The translations under genes and the position numbers were made by a program. Under the pieces are notes generated by a model. That model ran no database searches. It was given only the letters and a program-made list of their open reading frames with translations, and was not told the origin of the DNA. Shown one piece after another: positions 1,111 through 7,218 of a stretch of 11,760 bases of DNA (its first letter is position 1; every line of letters starts with the position of its first letter). This DNA comes from a virus. Lineage: Duplodnaviria > Heunggongvirae > Uroviricota > Caudoviricetes. The stretch lies in the IMG/VR virus record IMGVR_UViG_2737471850_000002; one strand, written 5' to 3'.

Positions 1111-1302
1111 ATGGCTATGATTGACCCGCGCACACCTAGCGGTAAGTTGACTCTACGTTACCGAGGTCTTCCCACGTCTATTCTATTGTCGATGCTCAAT
1201 TTGGATAAAGACGCAACGAATGGCCGCCCGTTTTATTCCCGTAATGAGCTTATAGAACAATTGGTCATTCGTGATATGGATATTAACCGAAGAAATAAGT
1301 AA
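1111..1302 (+). CDS. Hypothetical small protein, 63 aa
   Basis: ATG 1111 lies 3 nt after the upstream stop (1105-1107); GGGAGG-like SD (AAGGGAGGA, 1092-1100) upstream; ORF track 1111..1302. Confidence 0.45.
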   Translation: MAMIDPRTPSGKLTLRYRGLPTSILLSMLNLDKDATNGRPFYSRNELIEQLVIRDMDINRRNK

Positions 1303-1591
1303 GAAAGCCTCTGGTCACTGCGTCCGTAAATCCTACAAGTAACGCGATAGCAGAAGGAATAACGTTAATTGCTGCGACGGAAAATGATTTTGCTATCCCT
1401 TGTCCTTTGGCTGCCTTAAATAGAACTGCAAAGATAAATACTAGAATGAATGCAAATAAGGCTACTGTGATTATACGTTCAAGCATATATAGAGTGCGCC
1501 ACGTTATTCCTTCTGCTATATATCCAGCGCCGTATCCAACTGCATAAAAGCAAGCTAGGTAAAGCAATATGCTAAGAGCTAATTTGGGCAT
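1283..1591 (-). CDS. Small integral membrane protein, 102 aa, about 3 predicted transmembrane helices
   Basis: ORF track 1283..1591 minus; translation has three long hydrophobic stretches; AGGAA-type SD upstream of the ATG on the minus strand (plus coordinates about 1599-1603); 3' end overlaps the convergent 1111..1302 ORF by 20 nt. Confidence 0.5.
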   Translation of the reverse strand: MPKLALSILLYLACFYAVGYGAGYIAEGITWRTLYMLERIITVALFAFILVFIFAVLFKAAKGQGIAKSFSVAAINVIPSAIALLVGFTDAVTRGFLTYFFG

Positions 1592-2844: not shown

Positions 2845-3645
2845 ATGAAATTTCCAAAAACGCCCGTACAGGGGCGGGGCTTCGTTCGGCCTGAAAACCA
2901 GAATCTGCAAAATTTCGGCGAAATTATCCCGATTATTTCCGGCGTTATTGGCGGGAGTGAAACCACTATTGTTAGCGCCAGAGCGTTACATAAGGCGTTA
3001 GGTGTAGGGCGCGTTTTCCGTTCGTGGATCAAGGGGCGCATTGAAGAATACGGGTTCACGGAAGGCGTGGATTATGAGGTTGTTGAATATTTGAGCCGAC
3101 CCGATCCGGTGAGCGCAAAATCTCGCCAGCAAACCGCTCTTGAGTACATCATCACAGTGAACATGGCGAAAGAACTGGCGATGGTCGAACGTACCGAACA
3201 GGGCCGCGCCGTTCGCCAGTACTTTATCAAATGCGAGGAGGAGCTACACAAGGTTGCGCCTGTTCGTTCCGCAGCGTTACGCCGGGAACTGAAAGCCCGT
3301 ATCACAGTTGCCAGCTACTTTAAGCCAATGTGTGCCGCGCTGGAGGCGTACCGGGCTGAACTGGGTAAAAACACACTCCAGCACCACTACACCACGGAAG
3401 CGAGCATGCTGGCGCGTATCGTGCTGGGTGGCATGACTGCAAAACAGTGGGCACTGGCGAACGGCATTACAGGCGAACCACGCGACCACATGAGCACGTT
3501 GCAGCTTGAGCACCTTTCTTACCTTGAGCAGAGCAATATCACGCTGATTGAGTTAGGCCAGGACTACCACCAGCGGAAGGCTGAATTAATTCGTCTTTCG
3601 CAGCGTTGGTTAGCCCGTCGCATGGAGGAAAACAGCCATGTGTAA
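2845..3645 (+). CDS. Phage antirepressor-like protein, 266 aa, with an Rha/AntA-type N-terminal DNA-binding region
   Basis: ORF track 2845..3645; AGGAG SD 6 nt upstream; N-terminal segment (SETTIVSARALHKALGVGRVFRSWIKGRIEEYGFTEGVDYEVVE) resembles phage antirepressor / regulatory N-domains. Family assignment is from memory, not a search. Confidence 0.55.
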   Translation: MKFPKTPVQGRGFVRPENQNLQNFGEIIPIISGVIGGSETTIVSARALHKALGVGRVFRSWIKGRIEEYGFTEGVDYEVVEYLSRPDPVSAKSRQQTALEYIITVNMAKELAMVERTEQGRAVRQYFIKCEEELHKVAPVRSAALRRELKARITVASYFKPMCAALEAYRAELGKNTLQHHYTTEASMLARIVLGGMTAKQWALANGITGEPRDHMSTLQLEHLSYLEQSNITLIELGQDYHQRKAELIRLSQRWLARRMEENSHV

Positions 3646-3716
3646 CGCTCTGACCGTTACAAAAAGAGAAAGCGCCCCGTTGCCGGAGCGCCTTTGTGAA
3701 CGAATACCGCGCCTTA

Positions 3717-3866
3717 ATGACTGGTGGGGTACGCTACGACCTGAAAGGCCAGCCGTGCGGCGAGGTGACACCACAGGAACAACAGGACGCAGAAACGCGG
3801 CTGGTGGCGCTGAATGAGAAGCGCAAACGCCAGCGCCGGGTAGCAAAGGAGAAAACAGGCGCATGA
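3717..3866 (+). CDS. Possible small basic protein, 49 aa (MTGGVRYDLKGQPCGEVTPQEQQDAETRLVALNEKRKRQRRVAKEKTGA), whose stop overlaps the perC-like start (ATGA)
   Basis: Hand translation; falls below the 60-aa ORF-track cutoff; ATGA overlap with the downstream ATG 3863 suggests coupling, but no clear SD (a GTG at 3696 is an alternative start). A second short frame from 3638 to 3817 is also open in this GC-rich stretch. Confidence 0.25.
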   Translation: MTGGVRYDLKGQPCGEVTPQEQQDAETRLVALNEKRKRQRRVAKEKTGA

Positions 3867-4150
3867 TTCACGACAGCAAAGCGGAAGCACTGGAAGCGCG
3901 TGGCCTGTACCGGAGAGCGGCGGCGCGGTGGGCTGAGGTCATCATGCTGGCGAATGATGACAAGGCACGGGAACAGGCGGCAAAACGTCGCGCGGAATGT
4001 ATCCGCAAGGCAGCACGCCCACCAGCAAGGCAGGATAATTTCGGGGAGATGCGCGAAACCATCAGCCGGGCACATGCCGGGATGGGATTACATCAGCCCA
4101 ATGGTGAGGCATTCAGGAAATACCAAAAAAAGAACAATTGTAGTCAGTAA
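3863..4150 (+). CDS. PerC-family transcriptional activator (Pch/PerC-like), 95 aa
   Basis: N-terminal pattern SKAEALEARGLYRRAAARWAEVI is typical of the PerC family; AAGGAG SD at 3846-3851; ORF track 3863..4150. Confidence 0.75.
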   Translation: MIHDSKAEALEARGLYRRAAARWAEVIMLANDDKAREQAAKRRAECIRKAARPPARQDNFGEMRETISRAHAGMGLHQPNGEAFRKYQKKNNCSQ

Positions 4151-4284
4151 CAGAGGATGGGATTCTCTTGGTTTTTTGTTGATGCTTTCTGAGGAAATCT
4201 ACTACGTTGCTGAGCTGATGAATATTCAATTGCATCTGGGTTCCTGATAAGATTAATCTGAATATTTTCATTTGGAATAGGGAT

Positions 4285-5427
4285 ATGAATAAAACTTTAA
4301 TTGCAACATTAGTCGGTATAGTAATGTTAACCGGATGTGGGCCAGAAGAGTTAACTCCAGAACAGAAACAGGAAGTAGCTGCTCTTAAAGCTGAACTGTC
4401 GCAAACGGAAGGTGAAATATCAGCAGCTAAGGAAGTTGACCAGCAGTTTTCTGGTGGGTTGATAAAAAATCTGACAACAGCAAGACTGGAAATATTAGGA
4501 ACTAATAAAGCGCTTTTGGAACAGCGTATTAATGCTATTGAATCAGGTGCCAAAATTGATGTTGTTGTATCTGGAGTAAAACCTGATCCTGAGCTTGCGG
4601 CTTCAATTAAAACTGAAATTGACAGCTTAGATGCAAAAATCAACGAAGCCAAAGCTGATGCTCGTCAGTATAGTGGTGGTCTGATAAAGGTACTAAAATT
4701 ATCTACTGTTGCCACTGAAGAGCAGACCATGGCAATGTTGCAGCAAAAGTACCTCACAGCCAAGTATGGCCTCGCTGAAGTTAAGCTGGCATCAGTACAA
4801 GATAATGACGCAAAAAACAGTACTGAAACGGAAGTAACAGCCAAAAATTCCCAAGAGCAACTTCCTTTACTCCCGCCAGCGGATGGTCCGTTTGGCTTAG
4901 AAGCCGGTCTTACACAGAAAAACATCGAAGATATGATCGGTGCTAAGCTCAAGCCACTACCAGACAGTGTGAATCTGTATACTTCTGATAAATTACCGAA
5001 GCAAAACGCAGATTTTGAAATGTATGGTTTGTTGATCTCCCCGAAAGCTGGTTTATGTCAAATACGGGCTTTAGGAAAAAATATTGATACTGATAGCTAT
5101 GGATTGGCTCTTAAATCCAAGTTTGAAGAATTGAGTAATTCTTTAAGTTCTCTGTATGGAAAGGCTGATACTACAGACTTTTTGCTGGCTGGTTCAATTT
5201 GGAAAGATCCTCAGGACTGGATGAGGGGGCTAAACAAAAAAGAACGCTTCTTATCTGCCACATGGAAGGGAACAAAAGAAATACCATTAAAAAACAATAT
5301 TGATACTATATATATTGAGGCCAGAGCGAACAATTCCACTCAGGGATATGTCTATTTGCAGTACTCATTTACAAATGACGAAATTTGTCAGGCAGAAATT
5401 GAAGGGGCGAAAAAAAGTTCCCTTTAA
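4285..5427 (+). CDS. Lipoprotein, 380 aa, with two internal repeats of about 45 aa (Q-F/Y-SGGLIK...) and a C-terminal globular region
   Basis: Signal peptide with lipobox LTGC (MNKTLIATLVGIVMLTGC); internal repeats QQFSGGLIKNLTT... and RQYSGGLIKVLKL...; AT-rich codon use unlike the upstream genes. Confidence 0.75.
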   Translation: MNKTLIATLVGIVMLTGCGPEELTPEQKQEVAALKAELSQTEGEISAAKEVDQQFSGGLIKNLTTARLEILGTNKALLEQRINAIESGAKIDVVVSGVKPDPELAASIKTEIDSLDAKINEAKADARQYSGGLIKVLKLSTVATEEQTMAMLQQKYLTAKYGLAEVKLASVQDNDAKNSTETEVTAKNSQEQLPLLPPADGPFGLEAGLTQKNIEDMIGAKLKPLPDSVNLYTSDKLPKQNADFEMYGLLISPKAGLCQIRALGKNIDTDSYGLALKSKFEELSNSLSSLYGKADTTDFLLAGSIWKDPQDWMRGLNKKERFLSATWKGTKEIPLKNNIDTIYIEARANNSTQGYVYLQYSFTNDEICQAEIEGAKKSSL

Positions 5428-5439
5428 ACAATCCGTGCA

Positions 5440-5466
5440 AAGCCCCTTAGTAAGGGGCTTTTATAT
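5440..5466 (+). terminator. Rho-independent terminator downstream of the lipoprotein gene
   Basis: AAGCCCCT / AGGGGCTT stem with a short loop, followed by TTTTAT, 13 nt after the stop codon at 5425-5427. Confidence 0.7.
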
Positions 5467-5491
5467 ATTAATGTTCAACGGGGGGGATTAG

Positions 5492-5815
5492 ATGAAAGAT
5501 AATCTAGAAAAACTAATTGAAAATACTTTAAAAGATATTCTATTAGCTAATGCTGCTCTAACATTCATTTTTGCAATACCAATGGCTATTATCAGTAGGT
5601 ATGGGATGGGCATCACAATCTGGTTTATAACTGTGCTCATTGCACCTGCTCTGTGTGCAGTAGGTGCATGGCTTGTATCTCGAACATCCGGCCATGCTGA
5701 GGAGTTCTTTCATCGTCGGTGGGCTAAGCGAATTTATGTTTTTTATACTCTTGCGGCTGCCGAGTTTTTGCTTGTGTACTCAATCGCGCAAATAATGAAA
5801 AATCTGATGAAATAA
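5492..5815 (+). CDS. Small integral membrane protein, 107 aa, about 3 predicted transmembrane helices
   Basis: ORF track 5492..5815; G-rich SD (GGGGGGA) about 6 nt upstream; three hydrophobic segments of about 20 residues. Confidence 0.6.
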   Translation: MKDNLEKLIENTLKDILLANAALTFIFAIPMAIISRYGMGITIWFITVLIAPALCAVGAWLVSRTSGHAEEFFHRRWAKRIYVFYTLAAAEFLLVYSIAQIMKNLMK

Positions 5816-6022
5816 TTAACAAGTTATTATCATGGAGCTTGTGGCTGTTAACCTGCAGTGAGGCGACAATCGTGTATTTATAAAAACTTCCCCTTTTCAC
5901 TCCCCGCTGTTTCTTCTGCTATTGCCTTTATGTTTGCATGCACCAACATCTGCCATACCTTTGCAGAAAAATCAGAGCATTCAGTGCCGAAGGTTGGTTT
6001 ATTGATGCTTTTCGTTTCATTT

Positions 6023-6078
6023 ATTGCAATTGTCTCTGGTATCATTTCAATTTGTGCAATAATTGCAATAATTGCAAT
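6023..6078. promoter_or_regulatory. Three perfect copies of the 8-bp palindrome ATTGCAAT (6023-6030, 6062-6069, 6071-6078) just upstream of the 6103 gene; candidate operator array
   Basis: Seen directly; the last two copies are tandem with 9-bp periodicity (GCAATAATT GCAATAATT GCAATTATT); located 25-80 nt upstream of the ATG at 6103. Confidence 0.4.
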
Positions 6079-6102
6079 TATTGTCATTCAGAAGGGATCA
6101 TC

Positions 6103-6270
6103 ATGAAAAATCACGGAGTAAAGCCAGTTTTACTTTCCCGGAGGCAGATCGAAGCCCTGCAACGCATCCAGGACGAAGAGCGTCAGAAATCTGTGCTTGG
6201 TGTGGCACCGTCGATTCATGTTATCGCTCGGCAACTGATGGATAAGGCACTTAAAGAGGTGAGACTGTGA
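6103..6270 (+). CDS. Hypothetical small protein, 55 aa (MKNHGVKPVLLSRRQIEALQRIQDEERQKSVLGVAPSIHVIARQLMDKALKEVRL), a possible small DNA-binding regulator
   Basis: ATG 6103 with AAGGGA SD 6 nt upstream; stop overlaps the GTG start of the next ORF (GTGA); the upstream part of ORF-track frame 5938..6270 is low-complexity translation of the repeat region. Confidence 0.5.
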   Translation: MKNHGVKPVLLSRRQIEALQRIQDEERQKSVLGVAPSIHVIARQLMDKALKEVRL

Positions 6271-6527
6271 AATTAAATATCAGAGTGGATAAACGCCAGC
6301 TATGGCAGAAAAAAGAGAACAGCGAGGCATTCAGGGCGTTGCTGGTGGAAAATCTTCAGCACCGGTTCAGTGGAGAGTTGCCTGATGCTCTAGGGAAGAA
6401 ACTGGAATCCCTGACGGTGGAAATTGGCGATTATGGCTTTGTTGATGTTGAAAGCACGACTGCCAACACAGAAATCGTAAAACAGGTCGTCAATGATGTA
6501 ATGAAAACCACGCTTAACGGACGATGA
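6267..6527 (+). CDS. Hypothetical protein, 86 aa
   Basis: ORF track 6267..6527; GTG start overlapping the upstream stop; AAAGAGG SD about 7 nt upstream. Confidence 0.5.
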   Translation: MKLNIRVDKRQLWQKKENSEAFRALLVENLQHRFSGELPDALGKKLESLTVEIGDYGFVDVESTTANTEIVKQVVNDVMKTTLNGR

Positions 6528-6540
6528 CATACGGCAGCGT

Positions 6541-6789
6541 GTGCTGAATGCAGCCGGGGAATTAGGCTGGGAAGTGCACTTTCTTGATGATGGTGCTATC
6601 TGCCTTGAGGATGATGAAGGACAGCATTACTTTGAACAATACAATTTGCGGGGTAATGCCTGGCTGGCAATTCATATGCTGCGTTGTGAACTATGCTATG
6701 TTGCCAGCGATTGTCCCGATGAACAGGACACATGGAGTGAGGCAGGACTAAACGCCCTGGCTGAATGGGAAAAATCAGGCCATCAATGA
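6541..6789 (+). CDS. Hypothetical acidic protein, 82 aa
   Basis: ORF track 6541..6789 (GTG start, weak SD); the frame opens only at 6505, so the start is constrained; possible third gene of the small operon. Confidence 0.4.
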   Translation: MLNAAGELGWEVHFLDDGAICLEDDEGQHYFEQYNLRGNAWLAIHMLRCELCYVASDCPDEQDTWSEAGLNALAEWEKSGHQ

Positions 6790-6794
6790 CCTCA

Positions 6795-7008
6795 AAAAGT
6801 GTCAAGTTGAGCAGCTTGCCAGGTTGACACTTTACACTCTGAACGCGAAAAAGTGTCAACCTTGCTGGAAGCCGCGCCATTACTGGCCTTGTACCATATT
6901 CACCACGTCAAAAAACCGAAAAAATCGCGAAAAGTGTCAAGTTGCCATGCTTAGAAATGCCAGGGATGGTTAAGTTTTGTTAAGGTTTTTCGCGAAAAAG
7001 TGTCAACC
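6795..7008. repeat. Iteron-like array: four direct copies of (CGCG)AAAAAGTGTCAA(C/G) at about 6795-6810, 6844-6861, 6926-6942 and 6991-7008, plus one inverted copy GTTGACACTTT at 6823-6833
   Basis: Seen directly; copies are spaced about 50-80 bp apart in an intergenic region. Consistent with a replication-origin iteron set, a partition site, or a multi-site operator. Confidence 0.7.
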
Positions 7009-7038
7009 AGCCCCCTAAGATTTCCTAAGGTGTAAACC

Positions 7039-7218
7039 ATGACCATCACCGAAGCCGATATGCTGGAGATGATCCGCAGCATTGCCGAAATCAAACAACC
7101 AGCAAGCAAAATTAACAGGTGTTCAGCGCCTGTTTCCGTTGTGCTGCAACAGGAACGCCACCAGCAGGATGATGTGAGGCCGTATCAGTGGAAGAAACCG
7201 GACAGGCCGCGACGGTGA
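7039..7218 (+). CDS. Possible small protein, 59 aa (MTITEADMLEMIRSIAEIKQ...), immediately downstream of the iteron array
   Basis: Hand translation; AAGG about 9 nt upstream of ATG 7039; below the ORF-track cutoff; overlapped by a minus-strand ORF (7123..7440) of equally uncertain status. Confidence 0.25.
   Translation: MTITEADMLEMIRSIAEIKQPASKINRCSAPVSVVLQQERHQQDDVRPYQWKKPDRPRR

Follow-up and report, generated by a model that had tools for sequence, protein, structure and literature searches.

A putative packaging-recognition module in phage satellites of Enterobacterales, and its orphaned repeat array in a decayed Escherichia coli island

The phage-inducible chromosomal island (PICI) EcCICFT073 of Escherichia coli is known to carry Rpp (redirecting phage packaging) proteins together with cos sites (PMC6092414, PMC6739421), although the R elements of PICI cosB were not identified by the authors who described Rpp (PMC6739421). 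In published PICIs the origin of replication directly follows pri-rep on its 3' side and is made up of iterons on either side of an AT-rich segment (PMC6092414). A related element integrated at thrW, EcCIMP1, is mobilised by phage Kapi1 (PMC11773190). Here, we describe an array of short repeats at positions 6795-7008 of an 11,760-bp stretch of DNA (IMG/VR record IMGVR_UViG_2737471850_000002; the whole stretch is referred to as the window), together with the gene for a 175-residue winged-helix protein that accompanies such arrays in related satellites. The window holds a decayed PICI-type phage satellite of E. coli, integrated at tRNA-Gly, in which the gene beside the array is truncated.

The original prediction, made from the letters of the window alone, had described four direct copies and one inverted copy of a motif in this interval, and exactly this arrangement is present. 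The 10-mer AAAGTGTCAA occurs without mismatch on the plus strand at 6796, 6850, 6931 and 6997 and on the minus strand at 6824-6833. With up to one mismatch allowed, the window contains five matches, all exact and all within the interval, compared with a mean of 1.17 matches in shuffled sequences (five or more in none of 200 shuffles), and a repeat search of the window recovers the same copies. A longer form of 17-18 nt, CGCGAAAAAGTGTCAACC, is present in two exact copies (6844-6861 and 6991-7008) and in a copy one base shorter (6925-6941). The possibility that the motif is a dispersed repeat, which would have spoken against a discrete array, is not borne out: it is confined to the array in the window and is clustered in the relatives too, with 495 clustered and eight isolated exact matches in 1.96 Mb of related loci. 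Seven of the eight isolated matches lie within degenerate arrays beside a gene for the 175-residue protein. Conservation of the five sites reaches 98% over 36 distinct E. coli-type arrays, compared with 83% for the remainder of the intergenic region.

In their 12-bp form the sites are referred to as A sites. S1 (AAAAGTGTCAAG, 6795-6806, plus strand) begins 6 bp past the stop codon of the truncated helix-turn-helix gene, and a site is found at the same position in relatives of many genera. S2 (AAAGTGTCAACC on the minus strand, 6823-6834) is the sole inverted copy, and is followed on the plus strand by S3 (AAAAGTGTCAAC, 6849-6860), S4 (AAAAGTGTCAAG, 6930-6941) and S5 (AAAAGTGTCAAC, 6996-7007). 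The window array is shorter by one 55-bp unit than that of the intact relative L002, in which, as in similar relatives, the extra unit precedes S5. Two further kinds of element lie between and beyond the A sites. Past S4 are the B elements ATGCTTAGAAATGCCAGG (6947-6964) and GTTAAGTTTTGTTAAGG (6969-6985), which are short doubled half-sites with a 10-bp period on the plus strand (6947-6985), and past S5 is the B element CCCTAAGATTTCCTAAGG (7013-7030, plus strand). A central box, AAGCCGCGCCATTACTGGCCTTG (6869-6891), with the near-palindromic core GCCATTACTGGC (6876-6887), is conserved in a subset of genera; in Serratia aquatilis (L020) the core, GCCAGTACTGGC, is fully palindromic. The box is a candidate cleavage site or site for a second factor.

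The arrays and the 175-residue protein go together whichever is used as the query. When loci are retrieved by protein similarity alone, from at least 15 genera, nearly all of the genera show a cluster of AAAGTGTCAA immediately past the 3' end of the gene, with spacers that cannot be aligned. A scan of IMG/VR with the motif pair TTGACACTTT-N(10-30)-AAAGTGTCAA returned 116 contigs, most of them no larger or smaller than a typical satellite; in 107 a homologue of the protein is encoded immediately beside the array. In a second subfamily (protein start MSLMSVSQYAKHAGMSRQALYSW) the array lies 5' of the gene. This pairing of gene and array is well supported by the analysis and is further supported by the match between the near-invariant N-terminal 41 residues of the protein and the invariant A motif. 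From it we infer DNA binding: judged from sequence, the array is probably the cluster of cognate binding sites of the adjacent 175-residue protein. Candidate binders had been proposed among the small proteins of 6103-6789 and 7039-7218. One of these comes close: the open reading frame (ORF) at 6541-6789 encodes what is left of the likely binder, its C-terminal part, the DNA-binding N-terminus having been deleted in the window. The array-5' subfamily occurs in tail-gene contexts. In Klebsiella (L029-L031) and in two IMG/VR contigs (L091 and L107) the gene and array lie immediately upstream of tail genes (sheath, tube and tape measure) and truncated capsid genes. For Klebsiella and L091 this proximity to tail genes was weighed as a sign that late genes are regulated; such contexts may instead reflect satellites embedded in prophage late regions or captured late genes (PMC10111431).

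Over 114 distinct arrays the consensus of the A site is rAAAGTGTCAAS. Arrays in the relatives have three to seven sites, usually three to six, of which one is inverted and the others are direct, and the dominant order of sites is (+) - + + +. The spacing from the inverted to the following direct site (S2 to S3) is 27-28 bp in most arrays, while direct sites are 54-56, 81 or 127 bp apart. A doubled B element with a 10-bp period lies 5-8 or 16-20 bp downstream of many plus-strand sites, usually those towards the end of the array. Protein clades differ in the sequence of the B element: E. coli has CCCTAAGattTCCTAAG, Serratia has ATGTATCggaATGTATC, and CGTTGAGattTGTTGAG and GCTTCAGaaaACTTCAG are found in a distant Enterobacter-like clade. 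The A element is constant. B elements were considered as arm-type sites of the integrase and rejected, as the true arm motifs adjoin att and differ between glyU and thrW and the B elements do not. No match to the array was found by BLAST in 50,697 phage records, an Rfam search found no RNA family in the window, and in the literature the motif string turned up in nothing but unrelated primers, with no paper on the motif or the module in the library searched. A dense set of TTGACACTT/AAGTGTCAA and GTGTAAAG repeats between divergent gene blocks was seen in one low-GC, phage-like contig (IMG/VR contig 3300012979_000276, L055, 3940-4360). This AT-rich contig encodes no homologue of the 175-residue protein and was set aside as probably unrelated; its repeats could belong to some other origin or operator, or a different protein could read the same motif there.

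The 175-residue protein is annotated as hypothetical or as helix-turn-helix only and belongs to no Pfam family. It forms 112 protein clusters from Escherichia, Citrobacter, Klebsiella, Enterobacter, Serratia, Pantoea, Rouxiella, Yersinia, Raoultella, Erwinia and others. The first 41 residues are near-invariant (K5, Y8, A9, V14-S15-R16-Q17-T18, Y20 and W22 among them), and the remainder falls to 35% identity. The fold is shown by an AlphaFold2 model (63-sequence alignment; pLDDT of 89), in which residues 1-44 form a winged helix at the N-terminus and a disordered linker connects it to an α/β C-terminal domain. The winged helix is of the Xis/MerR type and resembles those of small terminase subunits (TerS), RppC and Xis; a TerS-like N-terminal DNA-binding domain is also a feature of the Rpp family. 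For both subfamilies the best PHROG is phrog_57, terminase small subunit. Profile comparison ranks RppA first (E = 7.8e-4), followed by lambda-like Nu1 (E = 0.02) and the island's own AlpA (E = 0.05), although the hhalign match to RppA spans only 29 N-terminal residues, and BLASTP to Rpp gives an E value of 0.06 with no significant full-length similarity. Residues R21, T23 and W27 of RppA align with the invariant R16, T18 and W22 of the 175-residue protein. In RppA the R21-T22 double mutant abolished cos1-dependent transfer, and T23 and W27 were named as candidates for DNA contact (PMC6739421). Foldseek against the PDB and BFVD matched the N-terminal domain only to generic proteins of the HTH_17/Xis type and gave no match for the C-terminal domain; a sequence search of the PDB found no relative of the protein, RppC included.

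The most distant matches of the locus search, from Paraglaciecola and a betaproteobacterium, share only the N-terminal ~43 residues, and their genes lie directly upstream of, and overlap, genes for gpA-type large terminase subunits (TerL). This position identifies these relatives as TerS, and the N-terminal domain that they share with the 175-residue protein is therefore a DNA-binding domain of the terminase Nu1 type, as in Rpp. Upstream of the bona fide terS gene in the Paraglaciecola metagenome-assembled genome (L026, 8860-9000) are repeats with a GTTAAC core, AGTTAACAC, AGTTAACC and GGTTAACG, and a GC-rich cosN-like stretch; read on the opposite strand, the first repeat is GTGTTAAC, one base removed from the satellite core GTGTCAAC.

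The layout of gene and array appears to be that of a cosB-like set of R elements in mixed orientation beside a terS-like gene. In lambda cosB (R3-I1-R2-R1, bound by gpNu1), as in the satellite arrays, several sites of 10-16 bp are arranged direct-inverted-direct over ~120-250 bp beside a gene for a winged-helix protein of the Nu1 type, and the relatives of the N-terminal domain of the 175-residue protein are bona fide TerS paired with gpA-type TerL. The satellite arrays differ in having more sites as well as B elements, in following the gene in the main subfamily where cosB precedes it, and in having no adjacent cosN and no identified IHF site. The resemblance to EcCICFT073 lies in the common PICI backbone (int, alpA, icd-like, DUF4222, primase and PerC), in the position of the module, which closes the late zone and is followed directly by a homologous small gene, and in the short repeats directly 3' of the gene. 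In E. coli CFT073 (L035) the order is cos1 (cosN at 22559), rppA (22660-23094), cos2 (cosN at 23298, minus strand) and then a gene for a 93-residue protein, and between rppA and cos2 there are three copies of ATGTCCGGTT, two direct and one inverted. All three copies are exact (23163-23259); chance expects 1.4 at up to one mismatch in 25 kb. They are candidates for the R elements of EcCICFT073. The small gene provides a synteny anchor: in the window it is a 59-residue ORF (7039-7218, plus strand), an internally shortened homologue of the 93-residue gene (E = 4e-5) that also matches a full-length version in another array-bearing locus (L130, likewise past an array; E = 7e-9). With the backbone shared and the small gene homologous, this synteny establishes that the preceding slot holds either cos-rppA-cos or the gene for the 175-residue protein with its array. 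No rppA homologue and no lambda cosN was found in ~150 array-bearing loci, and the 175-residue protein is absent from EcCICFT073 and EcCIMP1. The motif is absent from EcCIMP1, the one of these two elements that was scanned for it. EcCIMP1 is a thrW PICI, with the same integration site and a different late zone.

These comparisons suggest, with moderate confidence and on the strength of sequence, that the array and the 175-residue protein constitute a packaging-recognition module resembling cosB or pac. We infer that the module acts like Rpp and cosB yet probably stands outside the Rpp family: the N-terminal winged helix is TerS-like, with R, T and W at equivalent positions, whereas the C-terminal domain is modelled as α/β with no Rpp-like match, in contrast to the helical dimerisation domain of Rpp (PMC6739421). 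In the proposed mechanism, the A element rAAAGTGTCAAS would be read by the near-invariant N-terminal helix of the protein, VSRQTVYDW. Once a helper phage has induced the satellite, the protein would assemble in several copies on the three to seven A sites of mixed orientation, in the manner of gpNu1 on R3, R2 and R1 of lambda cosB. The protein-loaded array would mark satellite concatemers, from which the helper terminase would then select satellite DNA for encapsidation, with the variable C-terminal domain and the B elements supplying helper specificity. The module would thus be analogous to Rpp plus cosB in EcCICFT073, or to TerS plus pac in the Staphylococcus aureus pathogenicity islands. 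No other terminase-like gene and no capsid gene is recognisable in the array-bearing element. Several points weigh against a role in packaging. No cleavage site was found: the array-bearing satellites differ from EcCICFT073 in having no lambda-type cosQ or cosN, the lambda-type cosN GGGCGGCGACCT with cosQ had no match at up to one mismatch in the window or in L002 and none in the array-bearing loci, and a search of the window and L002 for P2/P4-type cos gave nothing above chance. The winged-helix fold is also common to excisionases and to regulators of the Cox/PrtN type, and this satellite family has no known helper phage.

A more specific and rather unlikely version of this proposal is that the composite A+B units are a new satellite packaging signal, in which a TerS-derived winged helix would read A and a second reader would take the doubled B. 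The B reader would be the novel C-terminal domain, or the small terminase of the helper recruited by the 175-residue protein. P1 parS is read in such a composite fashion, ParB contacting the A-boxes through its helix-turn-helix and the B-boxes through a second domain. The satellite arrays resemble parS in being composite sites with two different short motifs at a fixed distance, which suggests by analogy that they may be recognised by two domains or by two partners. They differ from it in showing no homology to ParA or ParB and in being chromosomal rather than on a plasmid, and two-domain recognition would here be an extrapolation. If the composite view is true, swapping the C-terminal domain and the B elements would retarget one scaffold to different helper phages, terminase hijacking independent of Rpp would extend across many Enterobacterales genera, and the mobilisation of the abundant 'type C' PICIs without recognisable packaging genes would be explained.

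The array had originally been read as the iterons of a replication origin. The form of this explanation considered here is that the sites are ori iterons or, as with P4 crr, a second cis-acting replication region, and that they are bound either by the primase/helicase or by the 175-residue protein as an initiator. The direct and inverted repeats do lie near A-rich tracts (6905-6930), and in P4 origin-type repeats are found far from the alpha gene. The array is like the PICI origins in being made of short repeats between the genes of a satellite, and iterons flanking an AT-rich segment define a PICI ori (PMC6092414). However, the intact relatives have canonical PICI origins elsewhere, directly 3' of the primase, and the iterons of these origins change with the type of primase: CGGGATAT/GCGGGATAT-type iterons follow a DUF927 primase in L002 (11570-11850), GGTAGACAGTT-type iterons follow a different, primase-family primase in L003 (11858-12190), and another repeat set lies 3' of a RepA-type helicase in L001 (13100-13510). 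The replication module thus appears to be exchanged as a unit of gene plus ori. The AAAGTGTCAA array, in contrast, is the same beside DUF927, primase-family, RepA-helicase and, in Klebsiella, D5-type replication genes. It is neither immediately 3' of pri/rep nor does it co-vary with an initiator; in L002, where the primase gene ends at 11541, the array starts only at 15856, ~4 kb downstream of the ori. It co-occurs with the helix-turn-helix gene and with no replication gene, and persists in the window, where there is no replication gene at all. The protein had no tblastn match in phages or in the 72,556 plasmids searched, and the array is likewise absent from these plasmids. The analysis speaks against an origin, and we regard this explanation as very improbable. 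Of the original prediction, the multi-site protein-binding array, the mobilisable element (here a PICI-type satellite) and the boundary between modules stand, and the origin iterons do not. The boundary separates conserved satellite genes from AT-rich cargo, with a GC content of 36-39% from 7201 onwards compared with 45-47% around the array.

The main rival to a packaging role is a multi-site operator, at which the 175-residue protein, as a Cox/PrtN/BldC-like factor, would switch the downstream genes, its own operon (in the second subfamily) or its own expression. In favour of an operator are the second subfamily, with its array upstream of the gene and of tail genes in the same orientation, and the TTGACA core of the sites; a scan for sigma-70 promoters nevertheless found no promoter-like site in the array. 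The genes downstream also vary: E. coli has the small gene and cargo, Enterobacter (L032) has genes on the reverse strand, and in Klebsiella a DUF5681 gene is present in two of three loci and truncated in the third. Five to seven sites over 200-300 bp with accessory boxes would be unusual for a simple operator, and the slot shared with rppA-cos would be left unexplained, so that we consider an operator possible but doubtful. The fold of the protein also invites comparison with an Xis-type excisionase, for which the repeats would be recombination-directionality sites within an attP arm. The E. coli array lies ~2.3 kb from attR (9282-9300), whereas sites of an excisionase would be expected within ~150 bp of the crossover. 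Doubled motifs of their own are present on the true att arms, of the TGTATAGAA type at glyU and the TTGGGGGTA type at thrW, while the B elements are identical for the two integrase types. Spacings of 27-127 bp with one inverted copy are unlike Xis filaments, and AlpA already serves as the excision and activation factor of the element; an excisionase array is accordingly very unlikely.

The intact relatives of the island are 15-17 kb long and occupy one of two tRNA genes, thrW (tRNA-Thr) or glyU (tRNA-Gly). Intact elements are present in, for example, E. coli MFDS1006657 and SCU-104, and WP_000930136.1 and WP_016262939.1 are full-length examples of the 175-residue protein. In order, the elements carry int, hypothetical, alpA, antA/Bro, icd-like, small ORFs, DUF4222, primase/helicase, proQ, perC, a gene for a 380-residue protein, small ORFs, the gene for the 175-residue protein, the array, a small ORF and cargo. 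This order, from int to cargo, is the organisation of Gram-negative PICIs (PMC6092414, PMC10111431), and the intact loci L001-L003 show int, alpA and pri in one direction, a specific att and an ori 3' of pri. The window copy retains alpA and attR; pri and ori have been lost, and int lies beyond the window. Compared with L002 (7048-12397), 5.3 kb is missing at a deletion junction at 3705/3706, which removed the icd-like genes, DUF4222, the primase, the PICI ori and the 5' end of proQ. A 56-residue ORF at 3696-3866 is a C-terminal fragment of ProQ. With the loss of primase and ori the island is no longer able to replicate alone. A second deletion, of 375 bp with its junction at 6515/6516, removed the first ~84 codons of the gene for the 175-residue protein, including the DNA-binding N-terminus, and left the last ~90 codons, which encode the C-terminal α/β domain (6516-6789, plus strand); the ORF at 6541-6789 is therefore only a C-terminal remnant. 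Because the DNA-binding half of the protein and the primase-ori replicon are both lost, the array in the window is a relic, an orphan that is non-functional.

At the right end of the satellite (9203-9300, plus strand) there is a doubled arm-type motif, GTGTATAGAAATGTGTATAGAA, at 9203-9224, together with the attR core TTCCCTTCGCCCGCTCCAA, which spans 9282-9300 and duplicates the 3' end of tRNA-Gly. The doubled motif lies ~60-80 bp inside attR and is repeated between attL and int, as GTGTATAGAAATGTGTATAGAA at glyU and TTGGGGGTACTTTTGGGGGTAT at thrW; in the relatives it is found at 5613-5634 of L001 and at 3490-3511 and 18748-18769 of L002. A doubled TGTATTGC motif was reported by Tommasini et al. 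as unique to helper-embedded PICIs (PMC10111431). The design and placement of the arm motifs described here match it, so that the feature seems to be more general, with integrase-specific sequences, and not confined to helper-embedded PICIs.

Positions 3705-11078 of the window match E. coli chromosomes at 99.3%, and the array region is present in 169 of 5,426 complete E. coli genomes (~3%), always in the chromosome. No complete E. coli genome covers at least 80% of the window, and the source island is therefore a mosaic without a representative in the genome collection. Between the post-integrase gene and alpA (1111-2528) there are extra ORFs, such as those at 1283-1591 (minus strand) and 1810-2301, which are absent from the closest relatives, L001-L003. 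Just outside attR, a glycoside hydrolase family 15 gene (9413-11065) is split into ORFs at 9413-10249 and 10295-11065, where L001 has a single gene of 1,611 bp; it is probably a pseudogene in the source strain. The array is also flanked by a cargo hotspot. In E. coli this holds a DUF4747 gene and a gene for a 199-residue membrane protein (7551-9043 in the window; GC 36-39%), in S. aquatilis a three-gene, ATPase-containing insert separates the gene for the 175-residue protein from the array (L020, 10121-13054), in Enterobacter there is a KAP NTPase (L032, 8507-9877), and L107 carries a 671-residue protein with a putative N-terminal ATPase-like motif (8709-10724). This cargo is likely to serve in anti-phage defence.

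For the window alone the finding is modest, as the array is orphaned in a decayed island, and its interest lies at the level of the family. Many Gram-negative PICI-like islands, such as the type C elements of de Sousa, lack recognisable packaging genes and are often dismissed as defective, and the route of their mobilisation is open (PMC11773190). The family described here provides an explicit pair, a conserved array of 11-12 bp sites and a protein with a terminase-type DNA-binding domain, in many Enterobacterales genera. If this pair is a packaging module, it would give a handle for predicting which helpers mobilise which satellites and could be used for transducible vectors, and it would help to explain how defence and virulence cargo spreads on these islands.
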